Source: Podarcis vaucheri (Eukaryota). From it: a DNA stretch of 64,000 nt. This document shows positions 1-58,727 of this stretch, piece by piece. Location of the stretch: assembly GCA_965113315.1 (NCBI GenBank), contig OZ220373.1; one strand, 5' to 3'. Position 1 is the first letter of the stretch; each line of letters opens with the position of its first letter. Under the pieces are notes generated by a model, which saw nothing but the letters and a program-made list of their open reading frames with translations, was not told where the DNA came from and did not search any database. Made by a program: the position numbers and the translations under genes.

Positions 1-715
1 ATAACACTGTGAGATAAATCAGGCTGAACGAGACAGAGATTTGCTCAAAGCCACCAAGAGTTTTACACACAGCTAAGTAGGAATCTGAACCTGGAATACT
101 TACATCCAGTCCAGCCAGCACCACCAACGAGAAATTATTATGGGACATGATCTGTATGCTGCTGTTAAATATATAGAGGCTGGCATGGGTCAGTATAGAC
201 GTTGCCAAATCCATTTCCCCTGGCACCAATCACACAAGGATATAACCAGAATCTGGCCCTTTTAAAACAACTTTTTCATTATACAGTTATACACTAGATG
301 TCATTACTGCTGCACTAGATCTGTAATACACGAACAGTGCGCTCCACTATATGCAGTAATCTAATTTGGGCAGAAAGCCATTATTTTTAAAAGAAATAAA
401 TAAAGTGAATCTGAGTCATCCGAAGATTTCAAACATCTGTCTCAAACATTCCAGTTCAGAAATTTAACATAACCTACATTTATGTGTTTTGATCTTATGA
501 CTGGTCTGCCACATTAAAAGATGTGCAAGGGATTTCATTCTAATCTGCTAAATTCATCTCAGGAGAGCATGCATTTTACAACAGGAAGTTTAGCACAAAC
601 ACTGAAGTCATACAGAAGCTGTAACCTTGCCTACAAGCATAAACACGTGTCAGGGCTGCCACCCAGTCCCAGCTCACATAGGACCAAGTCCGCCAGCGTT
701 CACTTTATAAGAGTC

Positions 716-721
716 TTTATT
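716..721 (-). terminator. Polyadenylation signal AATAAA in the 3' LTR (copy at 6567-6572 in the 5' LTR)
   Basis: TTTATT on the plus strand, ~75 nt downstream of the predicted TSS-equivalent position. Confidence 0.7.
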
Positions 722-773
722 AAGTTACAGGTTTCATTTCCGAACTGCAGCGTGCAGCTCTACACCTTCTGCC

Positions 774-3700
774 CTAGGTCGGCGAAGACCCGTCTGAGTC
801 CCCGCCTCTTGCACACCAGCTTAATACCCTAGCCTTGCTCCACCTCCTTCGCCTCTCCCTACGTCTCTGGGTCCTTCTGCCCCCCTGGGCCTCCTCCCTT
901 CTACTCTCCTCTGACGCTGACCCCCCTGATCCTTCTGCCTCCTTGCGGCGGGCTTTAGGACCTGGCTCACTCTCCGGGCTGCTTACTGCTCCAGCTTCCG
1001 CTGCATTTGAACTTGGCGCGCGCGCCCAACTCTCTACTTTCCTCTTAACCGTTGCCTCGCTCTCTGAGGAGGGCGTGACCACCCCTGACTCGTGCCCTCC
1101 CTCCTGCTGACAGCCTCCGGAACCCGATGCCTGTCTACCTTCCTCCCTGCTGCTCTCAGTCTTGAGCGTGGGTCCCGATTTCCAGCTGCTGCCGCCCTCA
1201 GTTATGAGCGTGGGTCCCGACTTCCAGCTGCTACTCTCTGAATCTCCTCTGTTCCCTTCCTCCTGGGGTGTCCCCCCGGATCCCCCCCTTGCTCTGCTCA
1301 CTGGGGCTCCCTTTTGGGAGTCCTCTGACTCACTGCTTAGGCTTGGAGATCTCGGGTCGTCATCATCACTCATTTTCCCTTCGGATTCCTCCCCCTCGCT
1401 CTCTGCTTCCTCCCTTCTCTGCATCTCTGCTCCTGAACCCCTGACATCCATCCCCCCCTCGAAGCCCCCCCTTCCCCCCTCCCCGCTTTCAGGTGTGGGT
1501 GCTGGGTGCTCCATCATCACGGGAGGGAATGCCGGATACAGTTCGCTCCCCGTGGTTGGCCGCCAACTGAAGACCTCCGAGTCTTCCTCCTCGCGGTCGC
1601 CGACGTTGACCTGTTCCGCTTCCATCTCTGTACCGCCGTGCTCGAACCCAAGGTCCTCCCCGAACACGTCCATGTCAGTCTCTGCGTCGGTCGCTCGACC
1701 TGGCATCTCCAGCCACTTCCGGCGCCATTGCTCCTCCGGTCGATCGTCCCACCAATACGAGGTGTCTGACGCCGAACCCGCCGGCGATCCGTCTGGGGAA
1801 CGGGTGCTCAGTGCGGGTTCCCCGTCCGAGTCGAATCCATGGAACGTGCTGGAAGAAAGTGTGGGCGTGAACAACCAGTCGTCGAAGAAGCTCGCTGGCA
1901 TGGGTCTGTGTGGGAAAAGGGCATGAAACTCGTCCTTGAGCAGGGGTTCCTCCAAAGCGTAGTCTGGCACCCAGCTATTGGCGCTGGCCCGGGTGCCCTC
2001 TCTGGCTAGGAGGTATTCGACTCCCTCTTCCCCCCATCTGGAGTCCAAAATCTCCGTGACCTCGTTGATGGTGTCTTGCTGCGTCACCCCTCGCGTCTCC
2101 GTCCGCTCCCGGAACGGACTCGGTGCCGTCCCTGGCTCCTGGAATCTGTGAGGTGCCTTGTAGGGAGTGAGCACCGACCTGTGGAACACCGGATGCATTC
2201 TGGAACCCTCCGGCAGCGCCAGTCGGAAGGCTACCGGGTTGATCTGTGCTTCGACTTGGTACGGACCAATTTGCTTGTGCCCCAACTTCTTCTTGGCTAG
2301 TGACCTGGTCGGCACTGCGTGGGCTGCCAACCAGACCCAGTCTCCCACTTGGATCTCTTCGCCAACCCGCCTGTGCTTGTCAGCTTGCACCTTGTAGGCG
2401 TGCTTAGCTAGCTCCAGCTGCCGTCTGAGTTGATCGTGTACCGCCTGCAACTCTGACGCGAACGCGTCCGCCGTCTGTGGTTCTCCGTCCCCCACTCTCT
2501 CCCGTCCCGGGAAGGTTCTGGGATTCCTCCCATTGTTGGCGAAGAACGGCGTCACCCCTGTGGACACGTGCTTCGTGTTGTTGTAAGCGAACTCGGCGAG
2601 CGGCAGGTAATCCACCCAGGTCGCAGGTTGTTGATTGGCATAGCATCTCAGGTACTGCTGCATGATGGCATTGACCCTCTCTGCTTGCCCGTTGGTCTGC
2701 GGGTGTCTTGCTGATGCCAGATCGACCTTGACATTTAGAAAACTCATCAGCTTCTGCCAGAAATTCGAGACGAACTGGCGCCCGCGGTCGGACAGGATAG
2801 ACCGCGGCAGACCATGCACTTTGAACACGTGATCTATGAACAGTTTGGCGGTTTGTTCCGCCGTGGCCACCTTCGCACACGGAATGAAATGTGCCATCTT
2901 GGTGAACAAGTCCACCACCACTAGTACAGCTGTCTTGCCTCTCGAGCTGGGTAGATCCGTAACAAAGTCCAGGGCCACTCTCTCCCACGGTTCAAACGGC
3001 GTTTGCAGCGGTTCCAGCAGTCCCGCCGGTGGTTTGTGCACCGGTTTGGCCCTCTGGCAGGTGTCGCACCTCGCAACGTAGTCCGCGACTTCCCCTCTCA
3101 GTCTGGGCCACCAAAAGTCCCTTGCGACTAATTCCACCGTTTTTTCCGTGCCAAAGTGCCCGGCCGTGGGTGCGTCGTGCAGCTGCTGCAGTACCCTGGC
3201 GCGAAGTTCGTCTCCCGGCACGTAGATGGCCCCTTTACGTAAGAGCAAGCCGTCTCGTATCTGGAACTCGTCGCCCTTCGCCGTGCCCTTGTGCACCTCT
3301 GCCATCTTCGCCTGCGCGAAGGAGTCGTCCTGCAACGCCCGCCGCACCGCATCCAGGTCTACTGTGGCTGAAGCGCACGCCCACGCTGTTGGCGCGAAGA
3401 TGTGCATGGCTGCCGCTGGCGTCGCCTCTTCGAGGTATTGCGGTTTGCGGGACAGTGCATCCGCCATGACGTTGGTGTCGCCTGGGACGTACTCTATTCG
3501 GAAATTGAAGTCAGCAAAGAACTCCGCCCAACGTATCTGCCTCTGGTTCAGGAACTGAGCCGTGCGCCAGTGCTCCAGATTCTTGTGATCCGTGCAGACC
3601 TGCACCGTGTGCTTGGCGCCGATCAGGAAGTGCCTCCACGCCTTGAAAGCTGCATGAATGGCCAGCAACTCCCTGTCCCAGATGGTGTAGTTCTGCTCCG

Positions 3701-5372
3701 ACTTGCTGAGCTTTCTGGAGTAGAACGCTCCCGGCCTCCAGACCCCCTGTGGGTCCCTTTGCAGCAGGACAGCTCCCACTGCTCTATCGGACGCGTCTGT
3801 CTCTACCCGCATCGGTCTGCTGGGGTCGATATGCAGCAGTTGCTCTTCCGACGCGAAGAGACGCTTGAGTGCCTGAAAGGACTGCTCCGCCTGCTCCGTC
3901 CAGATGAATTTCTTTTTCTTGGAGCTTAGCGTGTCCGTAATGGCCGCCGTCTGCATCGCGAACCCCTTGATAAACTTGCGATAGAAGTTGGCGAAGCCGA
4001 CAAACCGCTGGACCTCCTTCCGGTTGCGCGGGCTCTTCCAATCCAACACCGCACGAACCTTGGCGCTGTCCATGGCTAGCCCCTTGTCCGACAACTTGTA
4101 ACCCAAGAAATCCACCTCCGTCGTGTCGAACTGGCACTTCTCCAGTTTGGCGTACAGTCTATGCTGCTGCAGCCTCTTCAGCACCTCCCGAACATCTTGG
4201 TCATGGGCTTGCTGCGATTCGGAGAATATCAGGATGTCATCCAGAAAGCAGACGCACTTCTTGTAAAGGAGTCCCGCCAACACATGATGCATGAAAGCTT
4301 GGAAACAGTGAGAACCGTTTTGCAATCCAAACGGCATCACTCTGTATTCGTAGGTGCCCAGAGGCGTGAACATGGCTGTCTTCCACTCATCGCCCTCCCT
4401 CATGCGGATGAGATTGTACGCACCTCGCAGGTCCAACTTGGTGAACACGCGTCCCTTGCGCACCGTCGCTAGTAGGTCGTCAATCCTGGGCATGGGGAAA
4501 TCAGAAGGCTTGGTCATCTTGTTTAAGAGGCGAAAATCCACCACCAGTCTTTTTTGGGGCGTGTCTTTCTTCTTCACGAAGAAAACAGGACTGCCCCCTA
4601 CTGCCCTGGACTCCCGGATGAAACCGCGCTGCAAATTGTGATCTATGAACTGTTTGAGTTCCTGTAATTCGTCCTCAGACATGGAATACAGCTTCCCTTT
4701 CGGCAGCGTCGCCCCTGGTAGGAGGTCAATCTTGCAGTCATATTGCCTGTGCGGTGGTAGCTTGTCAGCCTCTTTCTCGCAGAAGACCTCCAGAAAGTCT
4801 GCGTATTTGTGGGGGACTGCTTGCAACGTTCCCAACTGCAGTTGTGATTCCTCCTCCTCTCCCTCCTGTCTGGGCAGGATGCAGTGTTCTGCGCAATAAG
4901 AGGAGCCGAAGATCAGCTGTCTCTGGTACCAAGCCAGTGTCGGACTGTGCCTGTCCAGCCAACTCATGCCCAACACAATGGGCGTGTCCGACAGTTGGGT
5001 GACATTAAAACTGATGACTTCCCTGTGGTTGCCAAGGCGCATCACCATCGGTGGCGTTTGCTTCACCACCTGCCCCCCTAGCAACTCTCTGCCATCCACT
5101 GTGACGACTTGCAGGGGCAGAGTGGCAGGCAGTAGCTGTATAGCGTGCTGCTCCACAAAATCCTGCGCTATAAAGTCTGCGTTGCTTCCAGAATCCACAG
5201 AAAGCGGCACTTCGATAGTGACGCCATCGGGTAGCTGGAGAGACGCTGTGAGCTGCACTACTGGTTTGGGTGGGAGGGGGTCCGTGGGTTGCAAGATCGC
5301 TGGGGACTGCTTCACTGATGCGTCTGGCTGGGCCCCAGTGCCTCTGTCTCCAGCCAGACATCGTCGTTTCCC
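774..5372 (-). CDS. pol: Pol polyprotein (PR-RT-RNase H-IN-chromodomain-long C-terminal tail), predicted to be made as a ~1870 aa Gag-Pol by -1 frameshift
   Basis: DSG protease site (5187-5195). RT motifs LDLRGAY, MPFGL and FLDD (4236-4247). RNase H motifs TDASD, RELLAI, TDHKNL and ADALSR. Integrase HHCC zinc finger, D-D-E core and GPY motif. Chromodomain-like segment at ~1915-2069. No stops in the 1571-codon frame. Confidence 0.97.
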   Translation of the reverse strand, partial: GKRRCLAGDRGTGAQPDASVKQSPAILQPTDPLPPKPVVQLTASLQLPDGVTIEVPLSVDSGSNADFIAQDFVEQHAIQLLPATLPLQVVTVDGRELLGGQVVKQTPPMVMRLGNHREVISFNVTQLSDTPIVLGMSWLDRHSPTLAWYQRQLIFGSSYCAEHCILPRQEGEEEESQLQLGTLQAVPHKYADFLEVFCEKEADKLPPHRQYDCKIDLLPGATLPKGKLYSMSEDELQELKQFIDHNLQRGFIRESRAVGGSPVFFVKKKDTPQKRLVVDFRLLNKMTKPSDFPMPRIDDLLATVRKGRVFTKLDLRGAYNLIRMREGDEWKTAMFTPLGTYEYRVMPFGLQNGSHCFQAFMHHVLAGLLYKKCVCFLDDILIFSESQQAHDQDVREVLKRLQQHRLYAKLEKCQFDTTEVDFLGYKLSDKGLAMDSAKVRAVLDWKSPRNRKEVQRFVGFANFYRKFIKGFAMQTAAITDTLSSKKKKFIWTEQAEQSFQALKRLFASEEQLLHIDPSRPMRVETDASDRAVGAVLLQRDPQGVWRPGAFYSRKLSKSEQNYTIWDRELLAIHAAFKAWRHFLIGAKHTVQVCTDHKNLEHWRTAQFLNQRQIRWAEFFADFNFRIEYVPGDTNVMADALSRKPQYLEEATPAAAMHIFAPTAWACASATVDLDAVRRALQDDSFAQAKMAEVHKGTAKGDEFQIRDGLLLRKGAIYVPGDELRARVLQQLHDAPTAGHFGTEKTVELVARDFWWPRLRGEVADYVARCDTCQRAKPVHKPPAGLLEPLQTPFEPWERVALDFVTDLPSSRGKTAVLVVVDLFTKMAHFIPCAKVATAEQTAKLFIDHVFKVHGLPRSILSDRGRQFVSNFWQKLMSFLNVKVDLASARHPQTNGQAERVNAIMQQYLRCYANQQPATWVDYLPLAEFAYNNTKHVSTGVTPFFANNGRNPRTFPGRERVGDGEPQTADAFASELQAVHDQLRRQLELAKHAYKVQADKHRRVGEEIQVGDWVWLAAHAVPTRSLAKKKLGHKQIGPYQVEAQINPVAFRLALPEGSRMHPVFHRSVLTPYKAPHRFQEPGTAPSPFRERTETRGVTQQDTINEVTEILDSRWGEEGVEYLLAREGTRASANSWVPDYALEEPLLKDEFHALFPHRPMPASFFDDWLFTPTLSSSTFHGFDSDGEPALSTRSPDGSPAGSASDTSYWWDDRPEEQWRRKWLEMPGRATDAETDMDVFGEDLGFEHGGTEMEAEQVNVGDREEEDSEVFSWRPTTGSELYPAFPPVMMEHPAPTPESGEGGRGGFEGGMDVRGSGAEMQRREEAESEGEESEGKMSDDDDPRSPSLSSESEDSQKGAPVSRARGGSGGTPQEEGNRGDSESSSWKSGPTLITEGGSSWKSGPTLKTESSREEGRQASGSGGCQQEGGHESGVVTPSSESEATVKRKVESWARAPSSNAAEAGAVSSPESEPGPKARRKEAEGSGGSASEESRREEAQGGRRTQRRRERRRRWSKARVLSWCARGGDSDGSSPT
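1155..1232. repeat. 42-bp-period tandem duplication inside U3 (also at 7006-7083)
   Basis: TGAGCGTGGGTCCCGA(T/C)TTCCAGCTGCT occurs at 1163 and 1205; encodes SSWKSGPTL twice in the pol frame. Confidence 0.9.
1447..1484 (-). promoter_or_regulatory. Polypurine tract
   Basis: G-rich tract ending GAGGGGGGGATGGA directly abuts the TGTCA start of the 3' LTR on the minus strand. Confidence 0.9.
5300..5372 (-). promoter_or_regulatory. -1 programmed ribosomal frameshift signal (G GGA AAC + H-type pseudoknot)
   Basis: Heptamer at 5372-5366 is in the gag frame, and pol is in the -1 frame. After a 6-nt spacer come a perfect 10-bp stem (GTCTGGCTGG/CCAGCCAGAC) and a 6-bp stem 2 (CTGGGG/CCCCAG). Confidence 0.88.
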
Positions 5373-6388
5373 TGCTGTGGTTCTCCTTGCTGCGTTGCTG
5401 CAGTCACCATTGCTGAGGCTGCAGTGTGCTTGTGGAGCCTCCGGGGACACTCTTTCGCCAAATGGCCTGGATCCTCGCAGATGTAACACTTCCTGTTCCC
5501 TCTAGGAGGCTTCGCTTTCACTGCTGTCGGTGCTTGGGCTCTGGCTGCTGACTGAGCCCTTGCACCTCCAACCTCCATCGGTTCCCCTCCCCCTCCAGGC
5601 GGAGGTGTGGATTGCGCACGCGCTGCTTCTCTTGGAACGAAATAGAAACTTCTCGCTGCTTCGCGCCCTCCACGTCCTTCATCTCTGCACCATGGACGTT
5701 CTTCCAGCCTCACCCCCACAGTCAGCGCCCTTTGGACCACCTCCTGCGTGCTTCGGGGCCTCTCCCCCCTTGCAATTTCATCCTTGACCGCAGAGCTTAG
5801 ACCCTCCCAGAACAGGTCTCTGACAGGGGGCGAATCCCGGTCCCACTCTAAGGCACTGACCAGCGCAAAAAAGCGGGCGTGGTACTGCCGGACGCTTGCC
5901 CTCCCTTGTTTTAGTCCATGAATCTCCCGTCGGGCAAGATCCACATCAATAGTAGACAAAAAACACGCATCCATCGCTTTGATAAAGGCATCTGCATTCT
6001 GAAGCGCCGGATCTTTATCCCTCCACAAATTGCGTAGCCACGCTTTGGCATCCCCATGCAAATGGGATAGTATGAACCCCACTTTCTCTTCCTCATCTCT
6101 AAAGTCTTTTGCCAGCAGTTGCAGTGCGCACATTACGTCTGCTCGAAAATTGGGGTACTGTTGTAAATTCCCATCGAAGTGAGCCACAAGCCCTCCTGCT
6201 CTCCGTGCCAACCCAACCCCCTCCGGTCTGGGTCCTGGCTGCCCGTGTTTAACCCATGCTTCAAACCTGGCGTGGAGATCTCTGTAGGCGGCTGCCGCAT
6301 CCTCCTCCCTCTTCTTGGATGCCAGTACCTCCGCGTTCAATTGGGTAACTGCCTGTTGCAGCGCTGCAACTGTCTCTGCTTCCGTCAT
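5312..6388 (-). CDS. gag: Gag (retrotransposon capsid-type, with CCHC zinc knuckle), ~358 aa from ATG at 6388
   Basis: N-terminal coiled-coil-like segment, LKQGRASVRQYHARF major-homology-like region, EPMEVG motif and CYICEDPGHLAKEC knuckle. Confidence 0.95.
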   Translation of the reverse strand: MTEAETVAALQQAVTQLNAEVLASKKREEDAAAAYRDLHARFEAWVKHGQPGPRPEGVGLARRAGGLVAHFDGNLQQYPNFRADVMCALQLLAKDFRDEEEKVGFILSHLHGDAKAWLRNLWRDKDPALQNADAFIKAMDACFLSTIDVDLARREIHGLKQGRASVRQYHARFFALVSALEWDRDSPPVRDLFWEGLSSAVKDEIARGERPRSTQEVVQRALTVGVRLEERPWCRDEGRGGREAARSFYFVPREAARAQSTPPPGGGGEPMEVGGARAQSAARAQAPTAVKAKPPRGNRKCYICEDPGHLAKECPRRLHKHTAASAMVTAATQQGEPQQGNDDVWLETEALGPSQTHQ

Positions 6389-6485
6389 CTCTGCTAACCG
6401 TCGTGAGCTTGCTCCCAAACACCGATCCCCTCCTCCAGCTGCCTCTCTCTCCGCTGCGAGATATCAGGTGTCCGAAGCTTTTGAG

Positions 6486-6496
6486 AGACGGGTCTT
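6486..6496 (-). promoter_or_regulatory. Self-priming primer-binding site (AAGACCCGTCT)
   Basis: Lies 2 nt downstream of the 5' LTR and does not start with TGG. Exactly complementary to AGACGGGTCTT at 6646-6636 in the LTR. Confidence 0.85.
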
Positions 6497-6498
6497 AC

Positions 6499-7292
6499 TG
6501 TCAGGGCTGCCACCCAGTCCCAGCTCACATAGGACCAAGTCCGCCAGCGTTCACTTTATAAGAGTCTTTATTAAGTTACAGGTTTCATTTCCGAACTGCA
6601 GCGTGCAGCTCTACACCTTCTGCCCTAGGTCGGCGAAGACCCGTCTGAGTCCCCGCCTCTTGCACACCAGCTTAATACCCTAGCCTTGCTCCACCTCCTT
6701 CGCCTCTCCCTACGTCTCTGGGTCCTTCTGCCCCCCTGGGCCTCCTCCCTTCTACTCTCCTCTGACGCTGACCCCCCTGATCCTTCTGCCTCCTTGCGGC
6801 GGGCTTTAGGACCTGGCTCACTCTCCGGGCTGCTTACTGCTCCAGCTTCCGCTGCATTTGAACTTGGCGCGCGCGCCCAACTCTCTACTTTCCTCTTAAC
6901 CGTTGCCTCGCTCTCTGAGGAGGGCGTGACCACCCCTGACTCGTGCCCTCCCTCCTGCTGACAGCCTCCGGAACCCGATGCCTGTCTACCTTCCTCCCTG
7001 CTGCTCTCAGTCTTGAGCGTGGGTCCCGATTTCCAGCTGCTGCCGCCCTCAGTTATGAGCGTGGGTCCCGACTTCCAGCTGCTACTCTCTGAATCTCCTC
7101 TGTTCCCTTCCTCCTGGGGTGTCCCCCCGGATCCCCCCCTTGCTCTGCTCACTGGGGCTCCCTTTTGGGAGTCCTCTGACTCACTGCTTAGGCTTGGAGA
7201 TCTCGGGTCGTCATCATCACTCATTTTCCCTTCGGATTCCTCCCCCTCGCTCTCTGCTTCCTCCCTTCTCTGCGTCTCTGCTCCTGAACCCC
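6499..7292 (-). repeat. 5' LTR (794 bp, outer 5 bp missing)
   Basis: Matches 648-1441; by eye only one substitution (A1423 vs G7274). The expected terminal TGACA at 7293-7297 is replaced by AGATG. Confidence 0.95.
6646..6677 (-). promoter_or_regulatory. LTR promoter: TATA-like TATTAA (6677-6672) and predicted TSS near 6646
   Basis: TATTAA starts 31 nt upstream of the 11-mer complementary to the PBS, the expected transcript start. Confidence 0.7.
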
Positions 7293-7573
7293 AGATGATT
7301 TGCTGCTTGAGGCAAAAAAATCAAGATGCCTCCCTTCTCCCATTCCAAGTACAAAAACTGATCAAAGTGGCAATAACTGAATTCTACTTCAAAGCTGATG
7401 ATGGGACCCTGTCTTCCAGTGCAACTGAAGGCAGCAGGCTATCTTAGAGAGTGCAGGACAAACCATGTGTCACAGACACACAATATTGTTCTCCAACTGC
7501 TTCTGTTCACCATCCCACAATTTGAGCCAGCTGAGGCACCCACCTCCCTTGGCTAATGGTAGGGCCAGCCCTG
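7293..7573. mobile_element. Old non-autonomous DNA transposon remnant (hAT-like), left end missing
   Basis: Ends in AGGGCCAGCCCTG, a CAGGGC-type TIR. The matching left TIR is absent at the LTR junction. Confidence 0.45.
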
Positions 7574-45398: not shown

Positions 45399-46442
45399 GA
45401 CCACAGCAAACTATGGCAAGTTCTTAAAGAAATGGGAGTGCCTGACCACCTCATCTGTCTCCTGTGAAATCTCTATGTGGGACAAGAAGCTACAGTTAGA
45501 ACTGGATATGGAACAACTGATTGGTTCCAAATTGGGAAAGGAGTACGGCAAGGCTGTATATTGTCTCCCTGCTTATTTAACTTATATGCAGAATTCATCA
45601 TGCGAAAGGCTGGGCTGGATGAATCCCAAGCCGGAATTAAGATTGCCGGAAGAAATATCAACAACCTCAGATATGCAGATGACACAACCTTGATGGCAGA
45701 AAGTGAAGAGGAATTAAAGAACCTTTTAATGAGGGTGAAAGAGGAGAGCGCAAAATATGGTCTGAAGCTCAACATCAAAAAAACGAAGATCATGGCCACT
45801 GGGCCCATCACCTCCTGGCAAATAGATGGGGAAGAAATGGAGGCAGTGAGAGATTTTACTTTCTTGGGCTCCATGATCAGTGCAGATGGTGACAGCAGTC
45901 ACGAAATTAAAAGACGCCTGCTCCTTGGGAGAAAGGCGATGGCAAACCTAGACAACATCTTAAAAAGCAGAGACATCACCTTGCCAACAAAGGTCCGTAT
46001 AGTAAAAGCCATGGTTTTCCCAGTAGTGATGTATGGAAGTGAGAGCTGGACCATAAAGAAGGCTGATCGCCGAAGAATTGATGCTTTTGAATTATGGTGC
46101 TGGAGAAGACTCTTGAGAGTCCCATGGACTGCAAGAAGATCAAACCTCTCCATTCTGAAGGAAATCAGCCCTGAGTGCTCACTGGAAGGACAGATCGTGA
46201 AACTGAGGCTCCAATACTTTGGCCACCTCATGAGAAGAGAGGACTCCCCGGAAAAGACCCTGATGTTGGGAAAGATGGAGGGCACAAGGAGAAGGGGACG
46301 ACAGAGAATGAGATGGTTGGATGGTGTTCTTGAAGCTACTAGCTTGAGTTTGATCAAACTGCGGGAGGCAGTGGAGGACAGAAGTGCCTGGCGTGCTCTG
46401 GTCCATGGGGTCACGAAGAGTCGGACACGACTAAACGACTAA
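45399..46442 (+). pseudogene. Truncated BovB reverse transcriptase C-terminal half
   Basis: 321-codon open frame from 45477. One upstream in-frame TGA (LL*NLY). No endonuclease or N-terminal RT. Confidence 0.9.
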
Positions 46443-55102: not shown

Positions 55103-55640
55103 TTCCCCATTTGGATCTCCCAGATTCCCCCATCTCAAAGCAAAGTGTGCAAATGAAAAAGATGCTCTGGGAGGGATGCTGTGTCGAAAACCGAGGCATT
55201 AAAACAAAAGTGACGTGCTGCACACAGCCGAGTTGAAAAGGCCATTTGCACTTATGCCAGCTTATTTCTTCACTGCACTGTTTGATAACTCGCAGGGCAA
55301 GTACTCCAAGGTCAGACAAACAAACCTGAGTGCACTTCACAATATCAAAACACACCAATGACGTGAACTAACTTCATGAAAGTTTAAATACTCATGCAGC
55401 TGATGGAGGATGGGGAAGGGAGGGGGGGGGGGAAGAAGAGACACAATTTCTCTGCAACTTTTAACTATGTTGGGTTTGAGTGCAAAGTTACTTTAAAGCC
55501 ACCCGATTACGCTATGTCTGCGCCACGCACGTTCCCAGTACATGCTAAGTCTCCTGCCATACAAAACATTGCAATGCCTCCACGAGAGGCTGAAGGAGCA
55601 AGTCTATACTACTTCGGGATGAAATCGCACGTGTACTTAC

Positions 55641-56090
55641 ATTGCAAAGGGCTGGATGATCAGGCTAGTCCTTGAGATATTTCCCCCTTCTTGGGAGCAA
55701 CGGAGGGAGAAGAAGAGACAAGAGACCGAGGAGAGTGGTGGGGAGGAGGAGGAGGAGAAGGAAGCAGGGGTGGGGGGAGCCGTTAGTTCTTCCAGCCTTG
55801 TAAGATGTTCACCACCTGGTTCAACATGCAGCCTCCTTTAACCGCACATACGCGCGCGCGCAACGCACACGCGCGCACACACACAACCTTGCAAAGCAAT
55901 CCAATGAGCAGCCAGCAGCTCTCTGGCGATGGTGGCGGCGTATGTGCGTGTGTATCTGAGGATCCGGGAGGCGAAAGTGCCCGTGCTGCTGGCCGGATTA
56001 AAAGTAAGCAGGAATCGTCCTGAGAGCGTCTAGGAAGGAAGTGACAGGAGGCGAGTGGGGGAAAAGAACAGCTCACAGGCTTTGTAACAT
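55641..56090 (-). other. Putative non-coding first exon of a minus-strand host gene (5' boundary uncertain)
   Basis: Consensus donor AAT|GTAAGT at 55641/55640, at the edge of the CpG-rich region and followed by intron-like DNA. Confidence 0.5.
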
Positions 56091-56098
56091 CACGGATG

Positions 56099-56100
<2 letters not shown>

Positions 56101-56154
<54 letters not shown>
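56101..56154. repeat. (GA)n tract in the promoter region (another at 55064-55099)
   Basis: Direct reading. Confidence 0.95.
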
Positions 56155-56155
<1 letters not shown>

Positions 56156-57014
56156 CAGGGAAAGGAAGCTTCACAACTACACGCCCGGCGAAGCTTCTCT
56201 TGCTTGTGTCCTCCCTCCTCCTCCTCCCTTCTTCTTCCTCCTCCTCCTCTTCTTCTCCCCTCTCTCTCCCACAATCCCAAACGAATGACTCTCTCCTGCC
56301 GAGCTGGAGAAATAATCAGTTTCACTCTTGAAAAAAGGGGGCGGGATCACATCCCGAAAGCGTTTTAATAAAACAAACACAGCGAGAGTGAGGCGAGAGA
56401 CCAGCTAGGAGTCTAGAAGGGGAGGAAGAGGCAATGGCAAAGCGCTCTCGCTCTCTCTTTCTCTCTCGCCCCTCTCTAGTCTCAACGAGATTGATAAATT
56501 ACTCCACTACCCTACTTTAATTATGTATATGGTATGCAGAATAAATCACCCAACATCAGGCACCTCAATCAAGCACTTTTTAAATGATAATTGCATCTTG
56601 GCTGAATCAATCTTGCCATGCCTGACATTTTGCTAATTTTAGTTTTTTACCAGGGGGGGGGGGGGGTAGGGAGAGCGCGAGCGCGCAATAGTGGGGGGGG
56701 GCACGTCTTGGTTAGTGGATATGGGGAGTCGAAGGACTTGGTATATGCCACGGAACAAGCCTTGGTGACAATCCTTATTATTATTACTATTATTATTCAC
56801 GAGCAAAGCGATCGCGCGGCAGAGAGGCGGAGAACACCGCCCCGCAGATGCCGGTCCCCCTCCTGATCAGGTCTGTCTGTGTCCCCAGAAGATTTTGGAC
56901 AGGGGCGGGTGGGGGCGAGGAGGAGAGGACGCGCGAGATCGTGGTTGGAGTCGTCTGGGCCAGCGAAGTGGTCTCGGCCAGAGGCGACCCCGGCAGCTCC
57001 CCAGGCGCGCGTGG

Positions 57015-57150
57015 NNNNNNNNNNNNNNNNNNNNNNNNNNNNNNNNNNNNNNNNNNNNNNNNNNNNNNNNNNNNNNNNNNNNNNNNNNNNNNNNNNNNNN
57101 NNNNNNNNNNNNNNNNNNNNNNNNNNNNNNNNNNNNNNNNNNNNNNNNNN
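57015..57150. other. Assembly gap (136 N)
   Basis: Run of N within the GC-rich island. Confidence 1.
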
Positions 57151-57809
57151 CAGCGGCAACACTTCTTTTTTAAACCGGTGGGTCGGTGGGCTGGCTGGCT
57201 GGGATGGGATGGATGTGGAGCCAGGAGGGCGAGGTGACGGAGCTGGGGTGGGGGAGCTGCTTAAATGCTTAGGAAGCGTGGCGTCTTCGTTTGCCCATTG
57301 AGGTCAATAAAGACAGATGAGGCTAAAGCAGGGAATCGACCGGAAGATAAACGCGAGGTGTGTGTCCGGATGGGCTCCGATCCGAGCCCCCCGGCTCAAC
57401 GGGATAGCAGATCGGAGGAGCGGCGAGGCTCACGGAGGAAGCAGCAGAGGAAGTCCCGCTTGCACTGCAAGGGAAAGTCCGCCGCTAGCGGCGGCAGCAC
57501 CATCTCGTCGACATTGGAGGCGGCAGCGCTCGCTCCACGCTGTCCAGCCAGCCTAACTTTCCAACGTGCTCTGAAAACATTGCTCTGCCCGAAAGCCTTC
57601 GCCCAGCTGGGGTGGAAGGCGAGAGGCAGGCTGCTGTTGTCGTTTCGTTTCTCGCAGCGCGCTGACCTTTCCTCTGCCCCCCTCCTCCCTCCACCTCTGC
57701 TGCGCCTTCCTCGCGGACCCTCCGCTCCGCTCTCTCCAAAGTGGAGCAGCCCCACTTCCCAAACTCGGGAGGCTTTTCCGTCTCCCCGCGCCAGCGGGAC
57801 TTCACTTAC

Positions 57810-57900
57810 CCGGGACGTCTCCAAACAAACTGCACAGGAAACAGGCGCGCGGGCTCCGGGGGAACAAGCGGGATGCTCCTACGATTTGGGGAGGGGGGTG
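57810..57900 (-). other. Putative alternative upstream first exon (5' boundary uncertain)
   Basis: Strong donor CGG|GTAAGT at 57810/57809 inside the CpG island. Confidence 0.4.
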
Positions 57901-58462
57901 AGCCAGATAAAACTCGCCAGGCTTTGCTAGTAGGGCAGCTGGGTCGGGGTGGCTGGAAGATTAAATAACGGTTCCTTCCCTTCCTCGGGGGAAGCCTAGG
58001 CGTGCTCGCTCGTCTGGCAGCAGCTCGCGTTTCCTGGTGCCCCGTCTGAACAGATCCTCACTTGGCCTCCGCAAACTCCGCTGTGCCAGCTCACCAGCTC
58101 AGCTCTGCGAGAGCATCGCCCGGGAAGAGCTTGAGAGCAAGCAACCTTGCCCCTTTGCCTGGCGACCGCAGCGCGGCCAAGAAGCGCTCCCTGGGCCCTA
58201 AAGTGGCCGCTCTCGGAAAGGGGACAGGCTGACTTGCTGACCTTCCTCCTTGTTTCTCTAGGGCGGTAAATCACTTGTGAAACTCCACGACGGTCTGCTT
58301 TCTGGGTTCGTCGTAGTTTGGGCACTTGCCTTCTGATCTGTACATGGAGGGCTGTGTTTTCATTGTGAAGGGGGTGGGAATAGAGGAAAGGTGTTCATTG
58401 CGTTCAAATACAGAATAAAACATGACTTTTACAGAGGTGATAAATTAAGGGCATGGAGCATG

Positions 58463-58727
58463 TATTATTATTATTATTATTATTATTATTCTACCCATCT
58501 GTCTTGGTTGCCCAAACCACTCTGGGCGGCTCCCAACAAAAAACAGTAAAAACATAATATAGCATCAAACACTAAGAAATTCCCTGTACAGGGCTGCCTT
58601 CAGATGTCTTTCAAAAATCACATAGCAGCTTATCTGTTTGACATCTGCTGGGAGGGTGTTCCACAGCGCAAGAGTGACTACCGAAAAGGCCCTCTGCCTG
58701 GTTCCCTGCAGCCTCACCTCTCACAAT
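58463..58727 (-). mobile_element. L2-like LINE 3' fragment with (TAA)n tail
   Basis: (TTA)n followed by CACTCTGGGCGGCTCCCAACA...GGGAGGGTGTTCCACAG...GAAAAGGCCCTCTGCCTGG, the reverse complement of an L2 3' end. Confidence 0.7.

Follow-up and report, generated by a model that had tools for sequence, protein, structure and literature searches.

A clade of Ty3/gypsy chromoviruses in lizards carries, in the tail of its integrase, a short linear motif resembling the TND-interacting motifs (TIMs) of host proteins. The motif has a single origin within these lizard elements, and the methyl-lysine cage of the neighbouring chromodomain eroded after this gain. The window, i.e. the whole 64,000-nucleotide stretch of Podarcis vaucheri DNA analysed here (contig OZ220373.1, assembly GCA_965113315.1), contains an element of a sub-lineage that has retained the motif, has lost the cage entirely and is enriched near chromosome ends.

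The window element, an LTR retrotransposon of the Ty3/gypsy chromovirus group with an open Pol frame, occupies positions 648-7293 on the minus strand and is organized as follows.

6499..7293, minus strand: 5' LTR, in which a few terminal bases seen in the 3' LTR are absent; no target-site duplication at the window copy
6486..6496, minus strand: self-priming primer-binding site, complementary to 11 bases within the LTR
5312..6463, minus strand: gag frame, with capsid and CCHC zinc knuckle
5366..5372, minus strand: heptamer G-GGA-AAC within the gag frame, with a predicted hairpin downstream
774..5501, minus strand: pol frame, 1575 aa from stop to stop, encoding protease, RT, RNase H, integrase, SH3, chromodomain and a long acidic tail that runs through the 3' LTR
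2160..2345, minus strand: Tf2-1-like SH3 (GPY/F) domain of the integrase (E 1.3e-15)
1447..1470, minus strand: polypurine tract
648..1446, minus strand: 3' LTR, 799 bases, TGTCAGGG...CCCTGACA, which also encodes the end of Pol

The PR-RT-RH-IN order between the LTRs is that of a Ty3/gypsy chromovirus of the Tf1/sushi type, and the C-terminal chromodomain on the integrase identifies the element as a chromovirus. It also shares with Tf1/sushi-type chromoviruses the gag-pol order, the combination of SH3 and chromodomain, the 5-base target-site duplication of its family and the self-priming site complementary to the LTR transcript, a mark of this type. The heptamer and its hairpin are likely to serve as a -1 frameshift site from gag to pol. 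Approximately 220 Pol codons lie inside the 3' LTR (774-1446, minus strand), and a basic stretch near the Pol end (899-822, minus strand) resembles a nuclear signal; in the sister families, Pol likewise ends in a basic LxW[KR]-type motif. At 7293-7300, the terminal bases of the 5' LTR and the target-site duplication are both missing, which suggests a small deletion in the flank. An antisense open frame of 271 aa (1111-1926, plus strand), rich in Ser, Pro and Leu, lies over the LTR and the tail and is probably a by-product of the coding strand.

The two LTRs differ by a single mismatch across 794 bases. In the search of the same genome, 150 of 6219 candidates were scored, and all of these showed 99-100% identity across 167 aa and contained no stop; the copies of the window family are 99.7% alike. 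The family is very young and active. The named close relatives all come from Podarcis muralis or P. lilfordi. Tandem elements with a common LTR, as well as internally deleted family copies, were observed at L011, L027-L029, L048 and L056-L057.

The region downstream of the SH3 domain contains five further features.

1911..2069, minus strand: chromodomain, with cage positions N at 2066, R at 2003 and T at 1994
1821..1892, minus strand: motif 1 (FFDDWLF-x8-FxGF), TIM-like, comprising a short helix (predicted), the anchor Phe at 1871-1869, a Ser/Thr linker of 8 residues, FxGF (1844-1833) and an acidic tail
1713..1757, minus strand: Trp-rich block YWWDD..EEQW..W
1638..1670, minus strand: motif 3 (GEDxGF[EH]), containing DVFGEDLGF at 1670-1644
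1527..1565, minus strand: motif 2 (W-RPTTGSEL-YPAF)

The chromodomain is genuine. Its Pfam Chromo match is weak (E 0.019), but its best PDB matches, in both sequence and fold, are HP1 chromodomains, and an AlphaFold2 model folds it; a protein atlas look-up returned generic chromodomain clusters only. The cage positions are occupied by N, R and T instead of the Y, W and F of HP1alpha, and this loss is common to the sub-lineage, so that the description of the domain as cage-dead proved accurate. The cage aromatics of group I, the methyl-lysine-reading chromodomains (Y24, W45 and Y48), are thus all absent, whereas in 107 other chromovirus rows the three aromatics are kept in 104, 107 and 103, respectively. 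PMC3350952, in the part available, assigns group I cages to the elements of vertebrates and reports loss of the first and usually the third aromatic from group II (plant) chromodomains; the window element has lost all three and carries a long motif-bearing tail. Selection was measured among six subfamily representatives (protein 66-89% alike) from older subfamilies, because the youngest copies, at 99.7% identity, are uninformative. The cage-less chromodomain is still under strong purifying selection, its dN/dS (0.045) being similar to that of the SH3 domain (0.044).

Motif 1 is likewise constrained. SFFDDWLF (1892-1869) and FHGF (1844-1833) both lie in the 1575-aa Pol frame, and the residues and coordinates originally given for all three motifs are correct and in this frame. 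Among the same six representatives, dN/dS is 0.078 in the motif 1 core, 0.36 in the following 24 residues and 0.29 in the linker ahead of the chromodomain; motif 1 is therefore more conserved than the flanking tail, as the original prediction required. The motif exceeds chance expectation, since shuffling yields a strict F-x8-FxGF at a frequency of 0.08% for the 383-aa tail and 1.1% for whole Pol. Of 33 copies examined, 27 (window included) could be aligned over the region, and the anchor Phe and FxGF are invariant in all 27. Their codons vary silently, which indicates selection on the protein and rules out constraint at the DNA level. An FFAT-like reading of FFDD was rejected because the sister families do not retain the pattern.

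The claim of repeated FxGF-like motifs failed, with one motif of three confirmed. Motif 2 is unconserved (dN/dS 0.66, 43% gaps) and deleted in several subfamilies, and motif 3, though moderately conserved (dN/dS 0.20), lacks the first Phe of FxGF; neither was retained as a TIM. The Trp-rich block, overlooked in the original prediction, is as conserved as the chromodomain (dN/dS 0.045) and specific to the window sub-lineage. It sits where sister families have the helix of a second motif, with uncertain homology.

According to the available text of PMC9987994, a TIM consists of a helix, an acidic or phosphorylated linker of 8-16 residues and an optional FxGF that is particularly important for LEDGF and HRP2. 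The linker comprises 8 residues in the window and 8-9 in the sister families. The helix is predicted at modest confidence and stops just before the anchor Phe (AlphaFold2 pLDDT <=64 there); a hydrophobic anchor (F) is present in 25 of 27 families, FxGF in 27 of 27 sub-lineage copies, and the linker and FxGF are predicted to be disordered (pLDDT <50). Spacings taken from human fusion constructs are F-x8 and F-x10 in JPO2, F-x8 in POGZ and F-x14 in MLL1, and the eight residues of the window thus agree, as originally stated, with JPO2 motif 1 and POGZ. With the TIMs of JPO2/CDCA7L, POGZ and MLL1 (KMT2A), the clade motif shares a helix ending in Phe, a linker (8-9 residues), FxGF and acidic residues after it and, in sister families, Ser/Thr followed by acidic residues. 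The sisters carry near-textbook acidic versions, and the proposed resemblance to a host LEDGF-docking motif is supported. The differences are that the motif is located in a retrotransposon integrase, that the window linker contains no acidic residue and that binding to LEDGF/HRP2, known for the host motifs, is putative here.

A profile of 21 sister motifs, run against 177,635 PDB sequences, gave six matches at E <=10. The first-ranked match and two others are the LEDGF-binding segment of MLL1, with a best E of 0.099, which is not significant. On a scoring matrix built from the sister motifs, four human motifs score 22.8-27.4. The window motif scores 15.0, the best site in Pol, a value that shuffled tails also reach (mean best 11.3, sd 3.0, maximum 22.0 in 300 shuffles), and as a lone peptide searched against the PDB it found no known motif. 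The window linker contains no Asp/Glu, in comparison with 4-6 in the human motifs, and six of its eight residues are Ser/Thr. On paper, the clade motif works like a TIM, and the window version reads as TIM-derived and atypical, because the acidic linker has been swapped for Ser/Thr. The genome encodes the PSIP1 and HDGFL2 domains (LEDGF and HRP2). A complex prediction for the Podarcis LEDGF domain (P0016, 400-495) and a 34-residue window peptide, with alignments unused, gave 0.23 against a mark of 0.34 and is uninformative either way.

Sister families were gathered by a profile search of 1.84 billion representatives, from a second database and by searches of the same genome. At the positional equivalent of motif 1, most of them carry helix-F-[acidic 8-9]-FxGF. 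Many have a second copy 30-45 residues downstream, and family P0138 has the distal copy only. Of the 27 representatives, one per family, 25 have the anchor F and 24 a T at +3; the F, G and F of FxGF are present in 23, 27 and 24, respectively, with the x alike in at most 8. The pattern occurs in 59 of 71 Podarcis and own-genome rows (a redundant set), the misses being mostly broken copies or basal families. It was found in none of the 107 other chromovirus rows (fish, frog, a few other squamates and other sources), in part owing to short comparison tails, as only 65 of them have tails of at least 30 aa. Acidic tails are also present in motif-less relatives.

In a tree of the SH3 domain and chromodomain, from which the motif was excluded and five outgroup rows were skipped, 19 motif-bearing rows and L101 form one 20-row clade (support 98/95). 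L101 is motif-less within this clade, and cage-intact, motif-less families fall outside it. A quick-method integrase tree of 94 rows is compatible. Cage and motif occur together in L096 and L098, which, along with the tree, place the gain of the motif in an ancestor whose cage was intact, with erosion of the cage to follow. The original prediction that the motif had replaced methyl-lysine reading is partly supported: the gain preceded the decay of the cage, but the chromodomain is still selected. Along a long branch (0.6-0.66), the window sub-lineage lost the last cage Trp, the linker acidity and the second motif, and the new state was then strongly conserved.

The distribution of copies was examined on seven chromosome-scale contigs, with positions from search tables, top-scoring copies only and families of different ages. 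In the window family, 55 of 143 copies among the matches listed are located at most 3 Mb from chromosome ends (5% expected, ~7-fold), and 88 are interior. The older sister subfamilies have 18 of 37 copies near ends, and family B, which carries two acidic motifs, 4 of 71, in both cases among the matches listed. Kinase loci, with the exons of one gene merged, gave 1 of 65 near ends. The other control, a young RTE LINE with 0 of 18 near ends among the matches listed, is represented in the window by a fragment (45468-46442, plus strand) that has near-identical copies genome-wide and that we take to be of the RTE/BovB type. The lack of end bias in family B indicates that the motif does not predict one distribution. 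End copies of the L109 family were left out of the count because they share long flanks or breakpoints and look like duplications.

Telomere-like satellite (degenerate TTAGGG arrays) was found in 8 of 52 3' flanks of the window family, but in none of 30 family B flanks. Of 18 pairs, 16 have matching target-site duplications (two further pairs had no LTR at the expected place), and seven of the eight array copies have their own; the array copies are thus separate insertions. Among sister copies in arrays, three of four share one junction, which shows that arrays can multiply copies. Within terminal zones, arrays occur in 709 of 2000 sampled bins and in 8 of 19 terminal flanks; the bias is therefore regional and not for the repeat, and telomere-repeat specificity was rejected as its cause. 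A 5-base site preference does not account for it either (1.15 vs 1.09). At the L001-L059 junctions, a weak palindromic 5-base target preference, roughly G-Y-W-R-C, was seen. Long degenerate TTAGGG satellite blocks mixed with nested gypsy copies (L205-L244) are found in the terminal 2-3 Mb of C1, C17, C18, C19 (high end) and C25 (low end) of the same genome. In lacertid acrocentrics, telomere-like arrays are centromeric or pericentromeric, according to the part of PMC7290949 available, and the terminal blocks are likely pericentromeric ends.

We favour, with modest confidence, the explanation that motif 1 docks the integrase on a host TND-type domain, most likely the IBD of LEDGF/p75 or HRP2 (HDGFL2), and so would tether integration via a host chromatin reader. 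The helix and the anchor Phe would fill the first pocket of the host domain and FxGF the second, and the linker, Asp/Glu-rich in the sisters, would meet a basic patch; the Ser/Thr linker of the window sub-lineage would need phosphorylation. With the host reader supplying the chromatin contact, the methyl-lysine cage would become dispensable, and the fold might be kept for another job. The destination in the window sub-lineage is probably not gene bodies, and HRP2 or a retargeted interface would fit a satellite-rich bias towards chromosome ends better than LEDGF/H3K36me3. The accessible portions of PMC4797281 and PMC9856275 report a preference of HRP2 for H3K9me3/H3K27me3 peptides and its association with HP1 and POGZ. 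Reduced purging near chromosome ends could likewise account for the end bias, as could HRP2 or a retargeted interface. The fuller history that we tentatively propose, and regard as nearly as plausible as not, is that a vertebrate LTR-retrotransposon clade evolved a single or doubled linear TIM mimic to reach LEDGF/HRP2, that the cage then decayed stepwise and that the window sub-lineage made its motif phospho-dependent and moved to pericentromeric/subtelomeric chromatin.

The alternatives that follow partly overlap with one another and with the favoured explanation. A somewhat unlikely one is that the ancestral docking motif, the cage-less chromodomain and the Trp-rich block have together been re-tooled into a new interface that favours pericentromeric/subtelomeric chromatin, in the manner of the CR motif of plant centromeric retrotransposons. 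The changes on the long branch and their subsequent conservation would suit such an interface, as would an end bias common to the sister subfamilies but not to family B or the RTE LINE, the failure of the 5-base preference to explain it and the telomere-like arrays of lacertid centromeric regions. Plant CRM group A elements offer a parallel by description: in the available text of PMC3059260, the targeting region at the integrase end has changed, the frame enters the 3' LTR and the elements are concentrated near centromeres. In these elements, however, the CR motif replaces the chromodomain, whereas the window element retains the domain and has gained a short motif. Moreover, the exact F-x8-FxGF has been preserved, although a new partner would have no need of it, and weaker purging in gene-poor regions, or multiplication of copies by arrays, could yield the end bias.

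It is unlikely that, as originally proposed, the motif binds LEDGF and steers the family into H3K36me3-marked transcribed gene bodies in a lentivirus-like manner. The form and conservation of the motif agree with this proposal, the interior copies among the matches listed are consistent with it, and the even spread of family B would be allowed. A CpG island lies ~49 kb away from the window copy, and the sequence around the copy shows T>A skew on the strand of the element, a setting compatible with an intron, although weak and a single case. The island (55500-58500) surrounds a masked stretch; below it, the minus strand has T>A skew, and a minus-strand gene that perhaps extends across the element may have its promoter there. 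The enrichment near ends among the matches listed, set against the kinase loci, points away from transcribed chromatin, as do the satellite flanks, in which nearly all copies have their own target-site duplication.

Quite improbable, in our judgement, is a purely structural role, in which the motif packs on its own chromodomain or integrase and its likeness to host motifs is a chance product of an acidic tail. The motif directly follows the chromodomain and is as conserved, and motif-less relatives also have acidic tails; against this stand the free-standing second copies, the distal-only copy of P0138, the predicted disorder of linker and FxGF and the match to all parts of the published motif class. 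Docking on TRF1/TRF2 to target telomere repeats is hardly credible: W-L-F-T-P resembles the shelterin docking pattern [FY]xLxP, and the degenerate TTAGGG flanks were absent from family B, but the window motif has Phe in place of the pattern's key Leu, and there is no extra repeat preference within terminal zones.

Among the closest known systems is lentiviral integrase-LEDGF tethering (PMC9987994, in the part available), with which, under the favoured docking explanation, the element would share the use of the same host domain to place integration; the only examples of viral mimicry named there are lentiviral integrases. Lentiviruses favour gene bodies, whereas the window family is enriched at chromosome ends. 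HIV integrase binds LEDGF via a folded pocket of its catalytic dimer, not via a linear motif. A linear motif of the TIM kind (F-x8) occurs in the transposase-derived host protein POGZ. Pogo transposases may carry a TIM, which would be a DNA-transposon precedent. A full-text literature search, covering few subscription papers and no supplements, returned no FxGF or TND-interacting motif in a retrotransposon, and, among the papers listed on FxGF with LEDGF, none concerned mobile elements, judged by titles and the opening lines of abstracts. The known hijackers of LEDGF/HRP2 are lentiviral integrases. If the docking explanation is true, a retrotransposon with the host's own linear docking motif would represent an independent route to the lentiviral cofactor in a non-mammalian vertebrate.

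A single genome contains a natural series of chromoviruses, i.e. cage without motif, cage with motif, eroded cage with one or two motifs, and no cage with a Ser/Thr motif; two families of this series have hundreds of young insertions and differ in their chromosomal distributions. The role of a cage-less chromodomain and target switching by integrase tails are thereby directly testable. In the same genome, C41 (41.3 Mb) contains a large share of the old copies from all these families and is, we infer, a W-chromosome-like refuge.
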